A program made the position numbers and the translations under genes. Below the pieces are notes generated by a model. The model had not been told where the DNA came from. It was given only the letters and a program-made list of their open reading frames with translations, and ran no database searches. Positions 3,206-61,117 of a DNA stretch of 64,000 nucleotides are shown piece after piece; positions within the stretch are counted from its first letter, which is position 1, and every line of letters starts with the position of its first letter. This stretch comes from Malacoraja senta (taxonomy: Eukaryota), in assembly GCA_038087875.1 (NCBI GenBank), contig CM075988.1:372001-436000 (forward strand), written 5' to 3'.

Positions 3206-3215
3206 TGAAACTTAC

Positions 3216-4941
3216 CCCAAATCCTGGCAAAGGTGCAGCTGGCGTTGCAACCGCTGGAGGCCTTCACACTGAATATTACAGCTGCGGAGATCCATGTATT
3301 TGATTGTATCACAGAGAGCAATGATATGCGACAGGATCTCGCAGTCAATCGGTGTCAGTCGCACTCCACGAAATGAAAGTGTCTCCATTGATCCCAGTGT
3401 GGCCTGAGCCAGTGCAGTATTCTGAGACTCAGACAGGTAGTGTAATGTGTTCAAGAGACTCCTTTTACCAGCTTTACTTCCTGTGTTTCCAATCTGACAC
3501 TTCACAACCTCCATCATCCAGGTAATCACTCGGCACGTTGTTTCTTGAGGAAATGGACCCAGAAACTCCTCCAGGTTCCCAGAAGACTCTGGAGAGGAGA
3601 GACCAGCGACAAAACGGAGAAATACCTCAAATCTCCCATCTGTGGTGCTGTAGATTTCAGTCAGGAATTTCACCATATCCCCAGAATCTGGAGTCAGGAA
3701 TTGTGCGATGGCCGCTACAAACTCTTGGATGCTGAGGTGTGGGAAGGTGTACACCACGCTCGGGCCAGAACACTCTCTCTGCAAGAGTTTCATCAAGAAC
3801 TGGGAAGGCTGCAGATTGTATTTGATCAAATCTCCATCTGTGAACACTATGACCTGCTCAGACACTGCCGTCAAGGCCATCTGACCAACTCTATGTAACA
3901 CGTCACGGGGGCTCTCAGTTTCACAACTGTGTGCTCTTAGGATGTTGTAAGTGTAGCAAGAATATAGTTGGGTGATGGTCTTGGGAATTTGCTGTTGGTC
4001 CCCGTGTCCTTGTGTGAAGAAGGGGCCCAGTGTCAGGCCAAGGATCCAGCAGTAGGAGGGGTTGTAGGTCATGGTGTACAGGATCTCGTTCTCCTTCACG
4101 TGATTGAAAACAGCTGCTGCCACCGTCTGATCTTCAAAAAGCCTGTTGAAATATTCTCTCCTTTCACCATCAACCAATCCCAGTATTTCTATCCACACAC
4201 TGATCTCTGCCTTTTCCAATAAATGTATTGCGGTGGGGCGGGATGTCACGAGCACTGAACACTCTGGGAGCAGCTTGTGTTGGATTAAACTGAATACAAT
4301 CGCAGACACCTCGCAAGAGAATTTGGGATCTGTGCACATGTGCTGAGGTTCTGTGTCTTCCTGACGGCGAACAAAACCAACTGTGTCCTTGAATTCATCC
4401 AAACCATCGAATATAAACAGCAACCACTCTGGATTTTCCCACAGCTTTTCCAGAATATTACTCAAGTAGGGATACTGATGCAGAATCATATCCGTCAAGC
4501 TTAAACTACAGTCAATAAGGTTTAAATCCCGAAAGTTGAATCGGAAGACAAACTGGAACTGTTGGAATATTTTGCCTGTGGCCCAGTTATAAACAATCTT
4601 TTGCACCATTGTAGTTTTGCCGACTCCTGCAACACCCGCCAGGGCAGATGAAATCCCAGATTTGTGTTGATTCTGGAAAAAGCTGCTCTGGAACAATTGA
4701 TCAATCTGGATTTTTTTTGATATTCCAGGGAGACTTTTCTCTCTCCAGTCGTCATGGTCCTCACTTCCTGCCAGCATCTCATGTCCCACCAGTCTCCGAT
4801 CTCGAACAGTGGAAATGACCGTGAGCTCAGCGTATTTATCAATCAGCTGCAAAACCTTGACATTGCCATTTCTCAGGACAATGCTGACGTTAAGCTTCTC
4901 CGTCTGCACTCGCAGTGTTTCCCTGTGTTTCTGTTGGGCAT
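3216..4941 (-). CDS. NLR main exon: FISNA-like region, NACHT NTPase, helical domains and first LRRs
   Basis: Open frame with Walker A GVAGVGKT, Walker B LFIFDGLDE, VTSRP and FPHLSIQEFVAA; acceptor aataaag before 4941 (phase 1), donor gtaag after 3216 (phase 2). Confidence 0.93.
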
Positions 4942-5091
4942 CTTTATTTGAAAAAATGGTACATCTTCTGAAGCATAATTTGACAATCTCTGTAATTACG
5001 CTTTCCCTGCTATCTTAACTGAACTGATATATTTTACACTGCTTTCATATGCGTGGCGGATTCGATTCCAGAACACAACTTGAATGTATAC

Positions 5092-14094: not shown

Positions 14095-16585
14095 ATCGGA
14101 CATGTAGGATTAATTTAAAGAACAGCTGATCTGAGCTCAGGACAGGCATGTTCCAGTAAGGAGGATGGGATGCAGATGTAAGGGAACCTTAGATGACCAA
14201 AGAGGTGGTACATTTGGTCAAAAGTTTAAAGGAAGCATTTGTAAATTTGAGAAGATTGAATCAGTTGGGGTCTTTGAGGAATTTAAATTAAGCAAGAAAG
14301 AACTCACGCAGGAGATTAGAGGCACAAATGGACCAGGAAATGTTATTAGCCAGTCGGATTAAAGAAAATACCAAGGTTTTTACGCGCAGATTACCAACAA
14401 GAAGGTAATCAAAACAATATGATAATCAAATGAAGATAGTGCCACTCGTGCTCGGTGGGACTTGATGTTTGGCATCGGAGGATGTCGGCACAATATGAAA
14501 GATTTGCATCTGTACTCACCACGGAGACGGACAGTGAGATCAGTGTGGAGAAATATTAATATGCTAAGGCAATTTGAGATCAAGAAAGAGGTGGTGTTAT
14601 GGCCCTTGGAGAGCGCCAAGGTTAGATGTACCCAAGGTTATTGTGAGGCATGAGAGGAAATTTCAGGGAATTTGACGATAATCTTTGTTAGCCATGGGTG
14701 AGGTCCGGAAGGACTGGATATTAGCCAATATTGTTCCTTTGTAGAGAAGTAGAGATAATCCAGAAATGTACAGACAGTGGTTGGAAAGATATTGGGTGGA
14801 TTCTTCGGCATAGGATTTACTCGAACTTGTTGGAGAATGGACTAATTCGGACTGTCGGCACTGCTCTATCCACGGCAGGTCTTGTCTTGCAAATGTGTGA
14901 GTTTTTTTCGGGAGGTAACAAAGGCGATAGATAAGGGTACGCTGGGATCTTATTTATGTATATTTTAGTTAAAGACCCTCATTCCTTGACTCCAGAGATG
15001 CTGCCTGACCCACTGAGTTACTCCAGCCAATTGTGTCTACGTATGGTATCCAGTGTCCTTTGGAGTGAGAACGGGCCTATTTATAGAAGACAGAGTTGTG
15101 GTTGAATGCTGTTATTCTAGCTCAAGGTCCGTGACCAGTGGATCCATGCTGTGATATTGCTGTTTGTGATACATATAAATGATTTGGAAGTTAATGTAGA
15201 TGGGATGATTAGGACCTTTGCAGATGCCACTAAAATCTGGGGTGTTGTGGACCTTTCTATGGAGATGGAGATTGTCAAAATATGGAGCAGAATATAGATC
15301 AGCTGTTGAAATGGGAAGAAATGGGAAGAGAAAGAGCAGATGGTTTAATGCAAGCAAGTTGAGGAGTTTTGGGAGGTCGAATGTAAAGGGGAAGTGTGAA
15401 GTTAACGGCAAGAGCCTTAACACCATTGATATTTAATGTACAGAAAGATCTTAAGGTACAAGTTGATGGATCCCTGTAAGTGGCAAAGCAAGTTCTAAAG
15501 AAGGCATGTGGTGTGTTTGCCTTCATCGGTAGGGCCTCTGAGCAAGTTGCTACTTTACAGTCATTTGGTTAACCCACATGTGGAGTATAAAAGGCCTGTC
15601 TCACGAGTCTGCGGTCATTGGCGGTGATACTGGAAGTATCTACCGCTCGTGGACCGCCAGAGACCGCGGGTTCGGTCAAACGACCACCGCCGGGGCCGTG
15701 CGGCGTTTGTCCCAACGGTGCTAAAAAAAAGTCAGCACTGTCCAAAAATAATTTCTTACCGCCACAGCCGCCGCCAGTGAGGCACGAGTGCGGCACGGTC
15801 TCCACCACAGCCGCCGCCAGTGAGGCACGAGCGCCGTGAGTCGAACTCTCACCGCCACAGCCGATGCCATTAAGGCAGGTATGCGGCACAGCCGCCGCCA
15901 CAGCCCCGCGATCCGAAAGACGTCATCGCGTAGCGTTGCGCGATGACGTAATCACCCGACGCCGCAAGCTTGTGGAACCGGCCGTACGGAGATCACTCGG
16001 CCCCCGCGCAGCATCTGTGCGGCGCTCTCACGGTTGACGTGCGGTCCCCTCGTCCGGCGACACCGCGCTTCACCGCCAATGACCGCAACACCGTGAGACA
16101 GAGCCTTTACATGCAAATTCTGGTTGGCCCATTACAGGAAGGATGCATTGGTTCCAGAGACATTTACCAGAATGTTCCCCAGATTCCAGGCTATTGGCCT
16201 TGAGGAAAGGTTGGACAGAATTTTTTTTGAGAGAATGTCGGAGGCTGTGGAGAGACTCCATATGGGGTTATAACATCGTGAGATTAGTCAAAACCCTTTT
16301 CCCAGGGTAGAAATGTCTAATATAAATAAATTGAAGGTGAGAGGGGTAAAGTTTAAATAATGTGGTGCGCAAGTTTTATTTACACAGAGTATCGGGTGCG
16401 TAGAATTTTCTGCCAGGGGTGGCGGCTGATACATTAGTGGGATCTGTGGGGCTTTTGGGTGGACAGGTGCACATGCAATGAATGGAGAGATATGGATCAC
16501 GTGCAGATTAGTTTCACTTGGCATCACGATTGGCGAGGATATTGTGAGAGGAAGGGCCTGTTCCTGTGCAGTACTATTCTACTAT
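14095..16585 (+). mobile_element. Old fragmented CR1, interrupted by a pLTR fragment and a MITE
   Basis: Remnants of PKDWILAN, INDL and FADATK plus CR1 3'UTR. Confidence 0.7.
15590..16108. mobile_element. GC-rich MITE (non-autonomous DNA transposon)
   Basis: TIRs AAGGCCTGTCTCACG / CGTGAGACAGAGCCTT, TA-flanked, interrupting a CR1; subterminal palindromy. Confidence 0.75.
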
Positions 16586-17999: not shown

Positions 18000-19445
18000 T
18001 GAATCCATCCATCCCCCACATCTTCCCATCTCCACCCCTTTTTGCTTTCCGCAGAGACCGTTTTCTCCGCAACTCCCTGGTTAACTCATCCATTCTCACC
18101 CAAACCATCCCCTCCCCAGGTACTTTCTGCTGCAACCGCAGGAGATGCAACACCTGTCCCTATACCTCCCCTCTCAACCCTGTCCAGGGACCCCAACAGT
18201 CCCTTCAGGAGGTTCACTTGCACCTCCTCCAACATCATCTACTGTATGCACTATTTATGTGTGTACTCCAATAAATCGTCAAGACATATATATCGTCAAG
18301 ATGGCAGACTGAGCGATCATTTTTCTGAACACCTTCGCTCAGTTCCCCTTGACCTACGTGATCTCCTGGTTGCCTTTTTATGGGCCTGTCCCACTTAGGC
18401 AATTTTTTAGGCGGCTGCCAGCGACTAGGACAATGGAATTCATCAAAGTCAGCACCTGGCGACAACCTACATCACCTGGCGACAACCTACATCACCTGGC
18501 GACAACGTACATCACCTGGCGACAACGTACATCACCTGGCGACAACGTACATCACCTGGCGACAACGTACATCACCTGGCGACAACCTACATCACCTGGC
18601 GACAACCTACATCACCTGGCGACAACCTACATCACCTGGCGACAACCTACATCACCTGGCGACAACCTACATCACCTGGCGACAACCTACATCACCTGGC
18701 GACAACCTACATCACCTGGCGACAACCTACATCACCTGGCGACAACCTACATCACCTGGCGACAACCTACATCACCTGGCGACAACCTACATCACCTGGC
18801 GACAACCTACATCACCTGGCGACAACGTACATCACCTGGCGACAACCTACATCACCTGGCGACAACCTACATCACCTGGCGACAACCTACATCACCTGGC
18901 GACAACCTACGACAGCCCAATTTGTCGCAACTGTCGCAGAAAATTGTTTAACATGTTGCCTGTAGTCGCCTAAAAAACACCTAAGTGGGACAGGCCCATA
19001 ACTCCCCTTGGCATTCTCACACTGACCTTTCTGTCTTGGGCCTCTTCCACTGTTAGAGTGGGGCCTAACACAAATTGGAGGATTTTGCTTTGGCAGCTTC
19101 CAACCCAGCGGTATGAATATTGATTTCTCTAACTTCAATGAACCCTTGCATCCCCTCTTTGTGTCCCGCCCCCATCCTAGTCCTTGTACTAGTCCTGCTG
19201 AGTTTCACTGTTTGTATCACTCGTTCACATAGCCAACAATGCACCATTGTGACCTCCACCTTTCCTTGATCATCGTTGCTAGCTTTGATTTGTACTTTTG
19301 CAGATCTCTCATTCATTTGTTCTGTACTTTTTCATATCCCTCTTTTCCCTTTCCCCTGACAGTCAGTATGAAGAATCGTCACCTATTCCTTCTCTCCAGA
19401 GATGCCGCCTGCCTGTCCCGCTGAGTTACTCCAGCTTTGTGTGTC
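18000..19445 (+). mobile_element. Penelope GIY-YIG and 3' fragment interrupted by a MITE
   Basis: HIFPSPPLFAFRRDR, CNRRRCNTC, FSEHLRSV and GMNIDFSN, then pLTR. Confidence 0.85.
18381..18998. mobile_element. MITE containing about 23 tandem copies of a 20-bp unit (CACCTGGCGACAACCTACAT)
   Basis: TIRs TGGGCCTGTCCCACTTAGG / CCTAAGTGGGACAGGCCCA flanked by TA; array at 18453-18910. Confidence 0.85.
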
Positions 19446-32884: not shown

Positions 32885-33084
32885 NNNNNNNNNNNNNNNN
32901 NNNNNNNNNNNNNNNNNNNNNNNNNNNNNNNNNNNNNNNNNNNNNNNNNNNNNNNNNNNNNNNNNNNNNNNNNNNNNNNNNNNNNNNNNNNNNNNNNNNN
33001 NNNNNNNNNNNNNNNNNNNNNNNNNNNNNNNNNNNNNNNNNNNNNNNNNNNNNNNNNNNNNNNNNNNNNNNNNNNNNNNNNNNN
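32885..33084. other. Assembly gap (200 N)
   Basis: N run. Confidence 1.
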
Positions 33085-53764: not shown

Positions 53765-55748
53765 GTCTATGATTTTATTCCTTGGAGTGCAGGAGGATGA
53801 GGGGTGATCTTATGTACAAAATCATGAGAGGAACATATTGGGTAGACACAGAGTCTCTTACCCAGAGTAGGGAAATCAAGAACCAAGGGACATAGATCTA
53901 AGGTTAAGGGGGGAAGATTTAATAGGGACAATTTTTTCACACAAATGCCGGTAGGTGTATGGAACGATCTGCCAGAGGAGGTAGTTGAGGCAGGGAATGT
54001 CGCAACATTTAAGACGCATTTTTGACAGGTACATGGATAGGTCAGATTAAGAGGGATATGGACCAAACGCAGGTAGGTGGGATTAGTAGATGGGACATGT
54101 TTGTCGGTGTGGAAAAGTTGGGCCGAAGGACCTGTTTCCGTGTTGCATGCATCTATGACTCTGTGACCCAATGTCTTTAGTCCCACTTGCCTGACAGGAT
54201 TGAAGAGTTGTGAATTGTGAAGCCAGAAGAATGAATGTAGGATGAGGGGCAGAGGAAGAGAGAGAGTGTGTGAGTGTGTAAGTGTTTGAGACAGAGACAA
54301 AAGGATGGGATAGTGTGGAGGGAGCTTTACTCTGCATGTATCTGACCCCCGGGAGCAGTGTGTGATGGGACAGTGTGGAGGGAGCTTCTCTTTTTTTCCT
54401 TCTTAACAAGGACTTTATCCAGTATTTGCATTTTACAGTGTACCAGAAGGTACAAAACCTTTCAATAGTCACATTACATTTGGAAAGTGGTGAAATCATT
54501 GGACAAAGTCAGCATGGATTTATGAAAGGTAAATCATGTCTGACGAATCTTATAGAATTTTTCGAGGATGTAACTAGTACAGTGGATAAGGGAGAACCAG
54601 TGGATGTGTTATATCTGGACTTTCAGAAGGCTTTCGACAAGGTCCCACATAAGAGATTAGTGTACAAACTTAAAGCACATAGTATTGGGGGTTCAGTATT
54701 GATGTGCATAGAGAACTGGCTGGCAGACAGGAAGTAAAGAGTAGGAGTAAACGGGTCCTTTTCAGAATGGCAGGCAGTGACTAGTGGGGTACCGCAAGGC
54801 TCAGTGCTGGGACCCCAGCTATTTACAATATATATTAATGATTTGGACGAGGGAATTGAATGCAACATCTCCAAGTTTGGGGAATGACACGAAGCTGGGG
54901 GGCAGTGTTAGCTGTGAGGAGGATGCTAGGAGGCTGCAAGGTGACTTGGATAAGTTGGGTGAGTGGGCAAATGCATGGCAGATGCAGTATAATGTGGATA
55001 AATGTGAGGTTATCCACTTTGGTGGCAAAAACAGGAAAGTAGACTATTATCTGAATGGTGGCCGATTAGGAAAAGGGGAGATGCAACGAGACCTGGGTGT
55101 CATGGTACACCAGTCATTGAAAGTAGGCATGCAGGTGCAGCAGGCAGTGAAGAAAGCGAATGGTATGTTAGCATTCATAGCAAAAGGATTTGAGTATAGG
55201 AGCAGGGAGGTTCTACTGCAGTTGTACGGGGTCTTGGTGAGACAACACCTGGATTATTGCGTACAGTTTTGGTCTCCAAATCTGAGGAAAGACATTCTTG
55301 CCATAGAGGGAGTACAGAGAAGGTTCACCAGACTGATTCCTGGGATGTCAGGACTTTCATATGAAGAAAGACTGGATAGACTCGGCTTGTACTCGCTAGA
55401 ATTTAGAAGATTGAGGGGGGATCTTATAGAAACTTACAAAATTCTTAGATTAGACAGGCTAGATGCAGGAAGATTGTTCCTGATGTTGGGGAAGCCCAGA
55501 ACAAGGGGTCGCAGTTTAAGGATAAGGGGGAAGTCTTTTAGGACCGAGATGAGAAAAACATTTTTCACAGAGAGAGTGGTGAATCTCTGGAATTCTCTGC
55601 ACAGAAGGTAGTTGAGGCCAGTTCATTGGCTATATTTAAGAGGGAGTTAGATGTGGCCCTTGTGGCTAAGGGGATCAGGGGGTATGGAGAGAAGGCAGGT
55701 ACAGGATACTGAAGGGCCGAATGGCCTACTCCTGCATCTATTTTCTAC
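53765..55748 (+). mobile_element. Two further CR1 3' fragments (53765-54165 and 54476-55748)
   Basis: ORFs 54375-54737 and 54784-55611; CR1 3'UTRs. Confidence 0.88.
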
Positions 55749-55749
55749 A

Positions 55750-56100
55750 TCAGGCAATCGTTATAATACAATAGTGCCATCTTTATCAACAATATGCTCG
55801 GCCCCCGCGCCGACCAGCTTTCACAGAAGGCTTCTAGAGACTCCGTGGGCACCGCGAGTTCCCTCTCCAGGGACACGCTGGCAGGGACACAGGCCTGGAA
55901 CAGGGGCAGGCAGCCAACTCTAGTGTGATCATTGACTACCCGCAGACTGGACCGGTGAATGGCCATCTTGGCCAGGCCCAGGAGCAAACCGACAGGCAGA
56001 TCCCACCCTACCGATCGACCCTCCCCACTCTCTGCCTTGTGCCCAAATACCAAAACCATAGGACTAAAATGCAACCAAAACTTGAGGAGCAGCCCCTTCA
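55750..56100 (-). mobile_element. Tx1-clade ORF2 C-terminal fragment
   Basis: LLLGLAKMAIHRS...CLPLFQA...VSLERE...AFCESW. Confidence 0.7.
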
Positions 56101-56225
56101 GATATGGGAGCTTCACTGTGCGTGTATCTGACCCCCAGGAGGACTGTGTAACGGGACAATTGTTGTTTTGTTTTACTTTCTGAAGCAGAATCACAGGAAA
56201 CATTTGCCTTCCCCTCCACTGCTCC

Positions 56226-56425
56226 NNNNNNNNNNNNNNNNNNNNNNNNNNNNNNNNNNNNNNNNNNNNNNNNNNNNNNNNNNNNNNNNNNNNNNNNNNN
56301 NNNNNNNNNNNNNNNNNNNNNNNNNNNNNNNNNNNNNNNNNNNNNNNNNNNNNNNNNNNNNNNNNNNNNNNNNNNNNNNNNNNNNNNNNNNNNNNNNNNN
56401 NNNNNNNNNNNNNNNNNNNNNNNNN
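56226..56425. other. Assembly gap (200 N)
   Basis: N run. Confidence 1.
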
Positions 56426-58715
56426 CAAATGCTTTCTAAAAGTCCAGGTACACGACATCCATTGAGACTCCCTTGGCCATTTTCCTAGTTACATCCTTAA
56501 AAAATTCCAGAAGATTAGTCAAGCATGATTTCCCCTTCGTAAATCCATGCTGACTCGGACCGACCCTGTTACTGCTATCCAAATGTGGCGCTATTTCACC
56601 TTTTATGATTGACTCCAGCATCTTCCCCACCATCGATGTCAGGCTAACTGGTCTATAATTCCGTTTTCTCTCTCCCGCCTTTCTTAAAAGTGGGATAACA
56701 TTAGCTACCTTCCAATCCACAGGAACTGATCCTGAATCTACAGAACATTGGAAAATTATCACCAATGTGTCCACAATTTCTAGAGCCACTTCCTTAAGTA
56801 CCCTGGGATGCAGACCATCAGGCCTCGGGGATTTATCAGCCTTCAGTCCCTTCAGTCTACCCAACACCATTTTCTGCCTAATGTGGATTTCCTTCAGTTC
56901 CTCCGTCACCCCAGATCCTCTGGCCACTAGTACATCAGGAAGATTGTTTGTGTCCTCCTTAGTGAAGACGGGTCCAAAGTACCTGTTCAACTTATCTGCC
57001 ATTTCCTTGTTCCCCATAATAAATCACCCTTTTCAGTCTTCAAGGGTCCAACTTTGGATTTAACAAATTTTTTCCTCTTCACATACCTAAAGAAGCTTTT
57101 ACTATCCTCCTTTATATTCTTGGCTAGCTTACCGTCGAACCTCATCTTTTCTCCCCATATTGCCTCTTTAGTTATCTTCTGTTGCTCTTTATGTTACCCA
57201 ATCCTCTGGCTTCCTGCTCATGCTATGTTGTACTTCTTCTCTTTTATTTTTATACTGTCCCTGATTTCCCAAGTCAGCCACGATCGCCCCTTACTCCCCT
57301 TGGAATCTTTCTTCCTCTTTGGAATGAACTGATCCTGCATCTTCTGTATGATCCCAGAAATACCTGCCATTGTTGTTCCACTGTCATCCCTGCTAGGGTA
57401 TCTTTCCAGTCAACTTTGGCCAGCTCCTCCCTCATGGCTCCATAGTCCCCTGTGTTTAACTGTAATGCTGAAACCTCAGATTTACCCTTCTCCCCCTCAA
57501 TAGATTAAAACTTATCATATTATGGTCACTTCTTCTGCAGTTGTATAGGGCTCTGGTGAGACCACATCTGGAGTATTGTGTACAGTTTTGGTCTCCTAAT
57601 TTGAGGAAGGACATCCTTATGATTGAGCAAATGCAGCGTAGGTTCACGAGATTGATCCCTGGGATGGCGGGACTGTCATATGAGGAAAGATTGAAAAGAC
57701 TAGGCTTGTATTGACTGGAGTTTAGAAGGATGAGGGGGATCTTATAGAAACTTGTAAAAGGACTGGACAAGCTAGATGCATGAAAAATGTTCCCATTTTG
57801 CCTTCTCCCTGGTAGGCTCCAGTACAAGTTGCTCTAAGAATCCATCACGGAGGCACTCCACAAACTCCCTTTCTTAGAGTCCAGTACCAACCTGATTTTC
57901 CAGTTTACCTGCATGTTGAAATCTCCCATAATAACCGTAGCATTACCTTTACGACATGCCAATTTTGACTCTTGATTCAACTTGCACCCTATATCCAGGC
58001 TACTGTTTGGGGGCCTGTAGATAACTCCCATTGGGGTCTTTTTACCCTTACAATTCCTTAGTTCTATCCATACTGACTCCACATCTCCTGTTTCAATATC
58101 ACCCCTTGCAAGGGACTGAATTTCATTCCTCACCAACAGAGCTACCCCAACCCTTCTGCCCACCTGTCTGTCTTAGGAGGTATACCCTTGAATATTCAGT
58201 TTCCAGCCCTGGTTCTCTTGCAGCCATGTCTCTGTAATTCTCACAACATCATACTTGCCAATTTCTAACTGAGCCTCAAGCTCGTCCACTTTACTTTGCG
58301 CATTCATATACAACACTGTGACTGTGGTATTCACCTCCCTCCCCTCTCACACCGCTCACAATTGGCCTGATCTTACTCTCTTATCCCTTCTTGAACTTTC
58401 CTTCCCACTAACTTTTGTAACTTTTCCTCTACTCACTTACACTTTAACTCCATCTTTACACTCCGAATTTGTCAATCCTTCCCCCACTATTTAGTTTAAA
58501 CCCACACGTGTAGTACTAGCAAACCTGCCTGCCAGAATGTCGGTCCCCCTCCAGTTAAGGAGAAACCCGTCCCTTTTGTTCAGGTCACCCCTACACCAGA
58601 AGAGATCCCAGATAAAGCGAAATCCTTGCTCCCTGCACCAGCCACCAGCCACACATTCAGATCCCCTGTCTCCATGTTCCTGCCCTCACTAGTATGAGGT
58701 ACAGGAAGCAATAGA
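56426..58715 (-). mobile_element. CR1 5'/middle part: ORF1 esterase (SGNH-like) C-terminus, endonuclease and RT start; plus-strand CR1 fragment inserted at 57530-57797
   Basis: GVALLV..ESVWIEL..GVIYRPP..MGDFN; DLNKRDGFLLNWRGTDILAGRF; KSP.PDGLHPRVLKE. Confidence 0.88.
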
Positions 58716-58918
58716 GTCTCTCCTTCCCCTAGTCTCTCTCTCTCCCTCTCTCTCTCCCCAGTCTCTCTCTCCTTCCCGAGTCTCTCTCTTCCCGTCTGTC
58801 TATCCTTCCCCTGGTCTCTCTCTCTCTCCAGTCTCTCTCTTCCCCACTCTCTTTCTCAGTCTATTCTGACCTCTGACCAGTTGTTTGACCTCTGTCTTCT
58901 CTCTCTCTTTCCGTCCAG

Positions 58919-59273
58919 TTCTCCAGAGTGACCGGTCACTCCCCGGCTCTCGTGGTGACCCCTGCCCCGGGATCGTTGACCCCTGACCCAGCCAGGTTGA
59001 CCCCTCGTGCCGGACACGCCGATGCCTGGGTTCCGGCACCTTCCACGCGCCGCTCTCTGAACCTGGACACCTGCGGCGGCCGGAGGGCTGACCTTTGACC
59101 TGACCTGCAACCCATCACTCTCTGACCTGTGGCGACAGATCGAGCAGCAGGCGGGAGTCTCCCCAGGGGAGGCTGTTGTCTACCTGGGGTCGAGACCCCT
59201 GTTGGAGGCCGACATGCGGAACCTTCCAGAATACGCCCCACTCCTCCTCGTCCGCAAGGTGTTCGGGGGCTGA
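58919..59273 (+). CDS. Terminal exon encoding a Pro-rich linker and a ubiquitin-like domain ending Gly-Gly-stop (1-nt frameshift at 59085-59087: pseudogene or consensus error)
   Basis: Polypyrimidine acceptor ctttccgtccag; SLNLDTCGGRR/LTFDLTCNPSLSDLWRQIEQQAGVSPGEAVVYLGSRPLLEADMRNLPEYAPLLLVRKVFGG*; AATAAA at 59703-59708. Confidence 0.65.
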
Positions 59274-59981
59274 TCCCTGACCCCAGCTACGGCCCCTGAC
59301 CACAACCTCCCTCTGACCTTTCACCTTCACCCTGAACCCACCCTTGAACAACACCCTCCCGTGACCCTAACTCTAATCTCCTCCTTTGACCCCCGACTTC
59401 AACCTTGATTCCTCTAGCCCTTCTCTCTCTCCCCTCCAACCCTCTCCTCCACTCTCCCCCAACCCTCTCCTCCACTATCCCCCTTCCACTCAACCCTCTC
59501 ACCTCTCCCCTTTCCCACAACTCTCTTCCCTTTCCTTCTCCCCATTTCCTGCTCTCCCCTTCTTCCCCTATCCCCTTCTCTCCTATTCCCCAGAACTCTC
59601 TCTCTGCCCCCCACATCCCCGTCCCACCCTCTCCCTCTCCCCTCCCCTCCCCACCAACCCTCTCCCTCTCCTCTCTTGATGTTGAATCCTGATTGATGCC
59701 TCAATAAACAGAGTTGGTCTAATCCTTGTCTTGTGTCATGTAGTGTGTGAACCCTCACACCCAGGGCCAGCTTTAGGAGGTACGGGACCCAATTGGGAAA
59801 ATGTCTCGTAGCAATATAAATAAATAATTATAAATGAGTCACGTGTCGTGAGTAATATGACAATTCGGGGGAGAGATCCTTTCACAGCGTGTGAGGATTC
59901 TAGCCAGGGGTAAAGTTGCGAGGAGGGAAGGAGCGTTGAGAAGGAGGGGGTCGGGTTCATGCCAGTAACTTGCTCACTCAC

Positions 59982-60059
59982 CGCTGCCGCGGCGCTCCGG
60001 GAGCCACCGCATTGTGACCGGGGAGGGAAGCAGCTCGCGTGGCTACGAGCGGCCGCCAT
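59982..60059 (-). CDS. Candidate first coding exon of an unidentified gene in a CpG-rich island
   Basis: GTGATGGCGGCCGC start, 26 codons MAAARSHASCFPPRSQCGGSRSAAAA, GCG|gtgagt donor. Confidence 0.45.
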
Positions 60060-61117
60060 CACCGGCCAGCGGAACCGACTGCATCTCAGCGCCTTCTGTC
60101 GGCACGCTCACCTCTGGCAGTGCTCTCCGTCTGAACAGTGAGGGGACCGGCTCAAGACCAAAGATCATAGAGCGGAGTGGTCAGCGGGTGATGGATAACA
60201 TCACAGCGGGCGGTGGAGCTTACTCTTGTGTCAGCGCGAACAAGGGATCAATTGAGGTTACTCGCACTGACATATGGAGTAAGCTCCACCTCCCGCTGTC
60301 CTGTTATCCATCGCCCGCTGACCTCCTCCTTCTCAACCCTCCTGCCCTCCCCGTAACTTTACCCCTGGACAGACTACCCACATGCTGTGAAAGGAACTCT
60401 CCCCTCTCCCCCCCCCAGCAGCGCTTCCTTTTACAGCCGCTTCCCATCAGCTGCTAGCAATGAGGGATAGACTTGGCTGTACCGCAGTACAACAACATCG
60501 TTCTTGATGTTGCTGTACTGAGGGATAATGAAGTCTATCTTTCTTGGCTAACAACCTACCTTTGGCCTCCAAGATGCGGGTACATTTTCTAGCAATGGCA
60601 CAAAATTTTGAGATTTTAAAAATCAAGTCTGCAATTTTCTCTAACTCTGAAATTGGAGATAGACAAAAGCTGGAGTAGCTCAGCAGGACAGGCAACGCAG
60701 CGACTCTGGAGAGAAGACCCTTCTTCAGACTGAACTGAACTCTCGTCGGTGAGAGTACTTGTGATTGTCTGAAGAAGGATCTCAACCAGAACCGCAACCC
60801 TCTCCCCAGAGCCCCTGCCCGTCCCGCTGAGCCACCACAGACAGGGAGTTGAAGGTAGACACAGGGGGGTCCACCTTCAACTTCAGAGCCAAACAAAAAA
60901 CACAGAGTGCTGGAGGAACTCAGCGGGCAAGGCAGCACCCGCGGAGGGAACATATCACTTATCAGGAGCCGCCACGGGACAGGACACTTCCCCCCCCCCT
61001 CCCCCCAACAGAAAAGAACCGCAGATGCAGCCATCACCGCAAAACGTCTAAGAAGGAACTGTAGATGCTGGAAAATTGAAGGAAGACAAAAATGCTGGAG
61101 AAACTCAGCAGGTGTGA

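Follow-up and report, generated by a model that had tools for sequence, protein, structure and literature searches.

The skate Malacoraja senta carries, within the 64,000-nucleotide stretch of DNA analysed here (assembly GCA_038087875.1, contig CM075988.1, positions 372,001 to 436,000 of the forward strand; hereafter the window), what is probably the last coding exon in a small gene whose ubiquitin-like (UBL) product ends in Gly-Gly immediately before the stop codon and is proposed to be a ready-made protein modifier. The exon lies on the plus strand at 58919-59273. Its last 72 amino acids are a very divergent UBL domain, and the exon very probably belongs to a genuine family of protein-coding UBL genes, known to date only from skates. 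In the window the gene is hidden by a frameshift of a single base, as the first-pass annotation of this DNA had claimed; an intact paralogue in the same genome and an annotated orthologue in Rhinoraja longicauda both lack that base.

The exon and its reading frames

The exon begins behind a strong splice acceptor (...tttccgtccag/TTC, with the boundary at 58918/58919 on the plus strand) that closes a long pyrimidine tract. The tract and its AG together span 58896-58918 and are placed by the sequence and by the ends of contigs described below. From 58919 one frame reads FSRVTGHSP...STRRSLNLDTCGGRR (...CGGRRADL) until it meets a stop at 59096-59098. Shifted by one base, a second frame is free of stops from 59061 onwards and yields ...LTFDL...LTFDLTCNPSLSDLWRQIEQQAGVSPGEAVVYLGSRPLLEADMRNLPEYAPLLLVRKVFGG (...LLLVRKVFGG) up to a TGA at 59271-59273, which stands immediately behind the Gly-Gly. 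When AGGG at 59084-59087 is read as a single step, the two frames fuse into a read-through of 117 amino acids (P0001). The GGG at 59085-59087 on the plus strand has one base more than the GG of the paralogue, which shifts the frame; the paralogue (on contig C2039) and the Rhinoraja protein (P0002) both continue ...R-LTFDL across this site and have the same Gly-Gly end. Because the paralogue and the annotated orthologue are both without the extra G, the join is not arbitrary and, judged from these sequences, is biologically right.

Behind the stop codon, a C/T-rich 3' untranslated region (3' UTR) with tandem arrays occupies 59274-59725 on the plus strand (the end coordinate is an estimate) and holds AATAAA at 59703-59708, 430 nt past the stop codon; homology of the 3' UTR to the paralogue reaches 59741. 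The product has a single lysine, located in the tail R-K-V-F-G-G and aligned to ubiquitin position 72. Rfam gives no match within the exon. The acceptor, the open frame, the join across the extra G, the Gly-Gly-stop, the distance to AATAAA and the single lysine, which had all been pointed out in the first-pass annotation, are thus confirmed on the sequence.

Paralogue, orthologue and copy number

A DNA search of the 1.94-Gb assembly finds the exon in two places, the window and C2039:24707-25106. The second copy is 92% identical (400 bases matching 401 query bases), and its alignment contains one single-base gap, exactly at the GGG. In this intact paralogue (C2039:24737-25084) the whole exon is open and ends ...KVFGG-stop. 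A protein search of the genome gives three strong matches, at these two loci, and four others at E 0.11-7.7 that are chance-like. Summed word depth in sequencing run X1 is 58-337 over 58761-59795 versus 10^5-10^6 across nearly all of 54000-58760. The locus is low-copy, and the possibility that the segment maps to a high-copy repeat can be set aside.

A search of 5.8 billion proteins returns one match at E <= 10 (28 candidates), LOC144592290 of Rhinoraja longicauda (P0002), an uncharacterized protein of 127 amino acids (E 7e-57, 85% identity over 100% of the read-through). It consists of MTAIAMYREV followed by the homologue of the window exon with its KVFGG end. This protein is the orthologue of the window copy, with which it shares the N-terminal region, the UBL domain and KVFGG-stop; it differs in being intact, in having 10 extra N-terminal residues from an upstream exon and in carrying an ATG inside the exon where the window has GTG. 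An orthologue that keeps the Gly-Gly-stop, which had been sought, is therefore at hand, and this ending is present in three of three family sequences (window, C2039 and Rhinoraja). LOC144592290 carries no name, function or Pfam domain, and this unnamed prediction without functional annotation, the only database entry found, already represents the family in NCBI. The earlier suggestion of an undescribed modifier that matches no known UBL protein stands in part: no named UBL protein is close, but the family has already been predicted, and it has been seen only in skates. In the titles and opening abstract lines returned by a full-text literature search, no paper on such a skate UBL protein appears.

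The exon in the window has no start codon of its own. The expectation that an upstream coding exon is needed is borne out by the residues ahead of it in Rhinoraja and by contigs of a related species, which extend upstream past the acceptor by 252-278 letters.

The window copy departs from its relatives at several sites. It has GTG where C2039 and Rhinoraja have the in-exon ATG (...A-V/A-M-V-T-P), and its codon at 59227-59229 encodes Tyr, whereas C2039, Rhinoraja and all four sequencing runs show His there (59228 A>G). Counted by eye, six residue changes are specific to the window and seven to C2039; since these numbers are about equal, the comparison gives no sign of long decay in the window copy. 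The X10 contig spans 58982-59252 (271 bases) with 270 letters and one gap, the place of which is not given, and is compatible with GG. The extra G breaks the frame within the first hairpin of the UBL domain. A real frameshift, which would make the window copy a recently disabled paralogue and possibly a pseudogene, is given a slightly better than even chance, and a mis-assembled intact gene a chance somewhat below even.

Evidence for a ubiquitin-like domain

The 72-amino-acid domain (SLNLD...KVFGG) occupies 59054-59270 on the plus strand, where it is interrupted by the frameshift, and is supported by Smith-Waterman alignment, a hidden Markov model (HMM) from the skate's own UBL proteins, a structural model and substitution ratios. 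Smith-Waterman comparisons, each with 500 shuffles, were made to ubiquitin, an ISG15-like gene, a di-UBL family and FAU/FUBI of the same genome. The C2039 domain reaches z scores of 9.3 to FUBI (17 of 63 residues identical), 8.3 to the C-terminal domain of the ISG15-like gene and 6.8 to ubiquitin; across the family domains the z scores to these three are 6.8-9.7, scores that none of the 500 shuffles attains. From strand 1 onwards the alignments keep register, and they end with GG on GG. The N-terminal domain of the ISG15-like gene (z 1.4-2.3, with 18-55 of 500 shuffles reaching the score) and one di-UBL domain are not significant. With an HMM of five own-genome UBL domains, the three family domains score 5.8-9.3 bits and the best of 2000 shuffles scores 4.6; an HMM built from phmmer matches of P0002 gives 18-20.5 bits and is partly circular, the matches having been picked by likeness to the query. 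The end-to-end likeness to ubiquitin, first drawn by eye, is thus upheld up to the terminal GG, at scores that neither the 500 nor the 2000 shuffles attain. No single parent stands out, since the domain lies at about the same distance from FUBI, from the C-terminal domain of ISG15 and from ubiquitin.

Database searches point in the same direction. An exhaustive phmmer search of P0002 against 1.84 billion representative proteins gives 13 sequences at E <= 0.001, the query and 12 others. All eight of the matches that were scanned are multi-ubiquitin proteins (7-18 PF00240 stretches, E 6e-9 to 4e-4), and the remaining four align mainly to the proline-rich N-terminal part. When the read-through is compared with the PDB by phmmer, 11 sequences come in at E <= 10, of which 6 are ubiquitins; a polyubiquitin leads them (E 0.0068), and its alignment crosses the frameshift. 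ESM protein-language-model features reach 0.89-0.91 to ubiquitin clusters and are taken as a lead only. Relatives outside the family were not detectable in the phmmer, longer-protein and UBL-part-alone searches.

Two AlphaFold2 models bear on the fold. The model made from the family alone places its elements in ubiquitin order, with strands at residues 46-50 and 56-60, a helix at 67-78, strands at 86-89 and 92-94 and a helix at 96-100. Its best rows in Foldseek are ubiquitin chains at E 0.05-0.6, none of them significant. A model of the 72 amino acids with own-genome UBL rows added (15 rows) has a mean predicted local distance difference test score (pLDDT) of 83.4 and a predicted template-modelling score of 0.66, and its order is strand-strand-helix-strand-strand-helix-strand. 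Against ubiquitin it gives a template-modelling score (TM) of 0.80-0.85 with a root-mean-square deviation of about 2 Å, and 398 of at least 500 matches have E <= 0.001. The beta-grasp fold for which a structure prediction had been proposed is therefore obtained, as a prediction from an alignment that held ubiquitins; the family-only model shows, at the level of a model, that the topology is independent of the ubiquitin rows.

Ahead of the domain, the plus-strand bases 58919-59053 (exon residues 1-45) code for a proline-rich and probably disordered N-terminal region in the same open frame in the window, C2039 and Rhinoraja. This part comprises about 45-55 residues and is lysine-free, and in the family-only model the pLDDT is below 50 for residues 1-43.

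Constraint and probable transcript

The two copies in M. senta differ unevenly along the exon. In the UBL part (codons 46-117), window and C2039 show 11 differences in 216 nt, of which six are synonymous, and the ratio of non-synonymous to synonymous substitution rates (dN/dS) is 0.29 (binomial p 0.047). Over the 135 nt of the N-terminal part, 10 non-synonymous and 4 synonymous changes make up the 14 differences, and dN/dS is 0.98. Identity is 123/156 over the first 150 nt of the 3' UTR and 83/107 over the last 100 nt of the intron. The share of differing positions is thus 5% for the UBL part, 10% for the N-terminal part and about 21-22% for the two flanks, 3' UTR and intron.

Contigs assembled from sequencing runs cover the locus. 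The X1 contig (1069 nt) covers 58842-59839 with 14 other letters; it is genomic, because it crosses the acceptor. Two contigs from a related species, of 972 nt (X4, depth 467) and 1030 nt (X5, depth 113), align only over 58920-59612, and their respective 252 and 278 letters upstream fit nothing in 54000-58919. They cover the 3' UTR to 59612, where repeats were skipped. Splicing is suggested because the similarity stops at the acceptor; even between the paralogues the intron end is conserved, and a contig of genomic origin would be expected to continue into it. In the related species, a spliced transcript with a length of about 1 kb is thus probable. No RNA run is listed as carrying the locus, and most rows have small shares (0.14-0.19).

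Comparison with known ubiquitin-like systems

The best pairwise match is FUBI, whose own-genome copy (L025:1604-1678 + 3330-3476) aligns to the terminal GG and is likewise lysine-poor. A genome scan with PF04758 gives two matches at E <= 0.01, both at the FAU locus on C2. FUBI is fused to the ribosomal protein eS30 and then cleaved, whereas the stop follows straight after GG in the skate protein; FUBI is also without the long N-terminal extension, and it scores 114 against ubiquitin, compared with 48-51 for the skate domain.

The C-terminal domain of the ISG15-like gene (L013:429-893) is second by z score and best by phmmer (11.5 bits), and both the ISG15-like gene and the skate protein end in GG-stop. 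In ISG15 genes the first coding exon is very short and a single large one comes after it, a layout that the exon arrangement here resembles. However, ISG15 has two UBL domains and an LRLRGG tail, whereas the skate protein has one UBL domain, an RKVFGG tail and a probably disordered N-terminal part that is unrelated to the N-terminal domain of ISG15. The ISG15-like gene belongs to a big tandem UBL gene cluster at C4:6.14-6.39 Mb and on contig C5659, which accounts for dozens of the genome's 113 matches to PF00240. The cluster includes two-domain ISG15-like genes that end in LRLRGG-stop, and a second di-UBL family that ends in ...RLRGG plus about 12 residues, or in RLFG.

With ubiquitin the skate domain shares the predicted beta-grasp fold, the end-to-end alignment and the GG end. 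It has about 18% identity to ubiquitin, is three residues shorter and falls below every Pfam threshold. Ubiquitin has seven lysines; the skate domain has one, without equivalents of Lys48 or Lys63, and unlike ubiquitin it is part of neither a polyprotein nor a ribosomal fusion. FAT10 and URM1 are translated with a Gly-Gly end and need no protease step before activation; FAT10 is a mammalian protein with two UBL domains and URM1 belongs to the sulfur-carrier branch. The skate protein is like these two in its free GG end. In OASL-type tails, UBL domains end a large oligoadenylate-synthetase protein; the skate orthologue has 127 amino acids, and the window and C2039 yielded no first exon.

Proposed mode of action

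The product would have about 106-127 amino acids, made up of the lysine-free proline-rich N-terminal part and the divergent UBL domain. With Gly-Gly directly before the stop codon, no C-terminal processing would be needed. The intact protein would be a type-I ubiquitin-like modifier: the free Gly-Gly carboxylate would be adenylated by an E1 enzyme, after which E2 and E3 would hand the tag on to lysines of target proteins. With only one lysine, at ubiquitin position 72, chain formation would hardly be possible. The tail RKVFGG, in place of LRLRGG, argues for E1 and protease specificities that would be unlike those of ubiquitin or ISG15. That the putative modifier is actually conjugated is judged to be rather less than an even chance. 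The fuller picture of a skate-specific, ready-made and almost lysine-free modifier with a disordered N-terminal extension, served by an E1 and proteases distinct from those of ubiquitin and ISG15, is rather unlikely.

Opposing evidence and alternative explanations

A number of results weigh against the interpretation proposed here. The Pfam check suggested in the first-pass annotation turned out negative, with nothing at E <= 10 for the two pieces or the read-through and nothing at E <= 0.01 for P0002. The whole-genome scan with PF00240 has none of its matches at C12:430919-431273 (the exon in the window) or on C2039; the gathering score of this family is 25.4 bits, which the domain fails to reach. 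In hhalign, the family against the five own-genome UBL domains has a probability of 5.5% (P 0.007), and the family profile against the PDB places DNA polymerase III psi (E 0.048) ahead of a designed ubiquitin (E 0.093). The family-only model, built from four rows, is of low confidence (mean pLDDT 47.8), and the confident model is partly circular, its alignment having contained ubiquitin-family rows. The conserved Gly-Gly says little, because the family consists of just three close sequences, 84-89% identical, and the dN/dS of the UBL part rests on small numbers. The X4 and X5 contigs come from one other organism and one study, and are marked 'RNA? (probably DNA)', their kind not being on record. 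The first 10 residues of P0002, searched as a degenerate pattern, have no match in the window at up to three mismatches, and in a six-frame scan neither the window nor 30 kb of C2039 has a stretch with at least 6/10 identities.

The composition of the region is a further point on this side. The plus strand is C/T-rich, with a GC skew of -0.37 for 58001-60000; three minus-strand open reading frames (ORFs) of 104-116 amino acids lie over the same bases, and 57 stop-to-stop ORFs of at least 30 amino acids overlap 58000-60500. Several frames are open by composition in such a C/T-rich region, and the open frame alone therefore proves little. In addition, TGACC occurs 17 times on the plus strand within 58841-59420 (580 nt), where 0.78 are expected and the maximum in 2000 shuffles is 5, and once on the minus strand. 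Three of these lie in the intron end, nine in the coding exon in all three codon phases and five in the 3' UTR, and 59130-59273 is free of the pentamer, of which the C2039 copy contains 16 over 584 nt. TGACC is also found within the codons for strands 1-2 of the UBL domain. Since the excess runs through intron, coding sequence and 3' UTR, part of the ORF sits on repeat-like DNA.

An open frame that arose by chance in C/T-rich, low-complexity DNA, with an accidental likeness to ubiquitin, would account for the many open frames, the TGACC-rich composition and the weak or negative outcomes of Pfam, hhalign and the PDB profile. This explanation is close to refuted by the shuffles, none of which reaches the observed scores, by alignments that stay in register from strand 1 to the GG, by a secondary-structure order that is ubiquitin-like even without ubiquitin rows and by the conservation of the frame in three sequences. 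It is also very improbable that the exon encodes a UBL domain at the C-terminus of some larger protein made from several exons, OASL-like or another immune protein, whose upstream exons were missed. The missing start codon, the upstream extension of the related-species contigs and the presence of an NLR gene in the same window are what such a protein would lead one to expect, but the NLR gene is 54 kb off on the opposite strand, the upstream share of the Rhinoraja product is 10 residues and contigs of about 1 kb allow at most about 90 more codons. A search of 946 candidates of 224-2000 amino acids gave 0 at E <= 1, which is weak evidence. With an annotated product of 127 amino acids and putative transcript contigs of about 1 kb, a small protein is favoured over the tail of a large one, and the earlier idea of a tail on a larger immune protein, for which no longer relative was found, is not supported.

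More weight belongs to two explanations that accept the origin of the domain. In one, the sequence is a functionless, decaying, lineage-specific transcript, a degenerate ISG15-, FUBI- or ubiquitin-like duplicate of which both copies are drifting. The frameshift and lost in-exon ATG of the window copy fit this explanation, as do the neutral dN/dS of the N-terminal part, the position amid LINE (long interspersed nuclear element) fragments and C/T-rich arrays, the repeat-like TGACC composition across the exon, the failure of Pfam to recognise the domain and the absence of relatives outside skates in the searches made. Yet conservation is higher in the UBL part than on either side of it, the full frame and Gly-Gly-stop are kept in C2039 and Rhinoraja, window- and C2039-specific changes are about equal in number, and the depth of the X4 contig (467) is above the 3.7-110 of neighbouring LINE contigs, that of the X5 contig (113) standing against 5-241; decay is thus considered distinctly unlikely. 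In the other, the protein is a real UBL protein that serves as a non-conjugated binding module, for example in docking to the proteasome or to ubiquitin-binding receptors, and the Gly-Gly is an ancestral relic. The departure of RKVFGG from the LRLRGG of ubiquitin and of the own-genome ISG15-like gene favours this view, and so do the replacement of the residues of the ubiquitin Leu8-Ile44-His68 patch, the lack of a dedicated enzyme gene nearby (only transposon ORFs and the NLR gene) and the retention of GG only among close relatives. Non-conjugated UBL domains are usually without a terminal GG and usually lie inside larger proteins, whereas all three sequences here have GG-stop at the end of a small stand-alone product, and a non-conjugated role is held to be somewhat unlikely. 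A small gene with a UBL product that ends in a free Gly-Gly, proposed as a ready-made modifier, is accordingly preferred as the probable explanation.

Surroundings of the exon

The window consists mostly of ORFs of LINE and long-terminal-repeat retroelements together with one NLR gene on the minus strand, and 54000-58760 is made up of LINE fragments. BLAST of C2039 against the window shows no collinear low-copy block upstream. An upstream block at 55802-56217, 85% identical to C2039:26587-27014, was considered as a shared exon and rejected as a repeat by its very high word depth. Assembly gaps of 200 N occur at 32885-33084 and 56226-56425, the second of which lies 2.5 kb upstream of the exon and beside this block. 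The CpG island at 15501-16300, the strongest in the window (CpG observed/expected 1.0-1.3, GC 0.55-0.64), was likewise considered as a promoter or shared first exon and rejected, its C2039 homologue lying downstream of the UBL copy with its relative orientation reversed. It has a low-copy counterpart at C2039:13154-13764 (71-72% identical), and no Pfam domain is found in its ORFs. The two loci thus have more in common than the exon but are rearranged.

The NLR-type innate immune gene is an ORF of 600 amino acids at 3215-5014 (minus strand) with NACHT (E 2e-37), NOD2_WH and NLRC4_HD2 domains; a leucine-rich-repeat exon (L021:9519-9851, minus strand) lies just outside the window, further along the minus strand from this ORF. 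In 20 kb on either side on C12 and in C2039:14000-43999, only transposon ORFs and one leucine-rich-repeat exon are found.

Within the exon, three head-to-tail 21-nt units, each starting from xTGACCCCT and coding for (V/L)TPxxxx, lie at 58955-59017 on the plus strand, with TGACC at 58956, 58977 and 58998, 21 nt apart. Tandem Repeats Finder did not report a 21-nt array at 58955-59017. The sequence TGACCTTTGACCT at 59089-59101 is the reverse complement of a direct-repeat-1 nuclear-receptor element. Downstream of the gene, a long hairpin at 60154-60350, inside a CpG-rich stretch at 59801-60400, matches several plant microRNA-precursor models far below gathering (for example MIR1437, 61.9 versus 168 bits) and is probably an inverted-repeat transposon. 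At 18313-18970 (plus strand), all three frames are open for 178-212 amino acids with weak sub-threshold or borderline matches to FATC and DUF6780, and the stretch looks like a low-complexity or tandem repeat and not a gene.

Meaning of the finding

A single-base indel hid this gene from ORF-based annotation in the assembly. The vertebrate list of ubiquitin-like modifiers is short and is considered nearly closed. If the proposal is true, a stand-alone UBL protein with a free Gly-Gly, seen only in skates and picked up by no family model, would be a candidate for a lineage-specific conjugation system and an addition to the vertebrate UBL modifiers; if the protein is not conjugated, it would be a minor addition to the catalogue of UBL domains. 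At the least, the family would offer an example of a beta-grasp modifier that has diverged far while its C-terminus has been kept.

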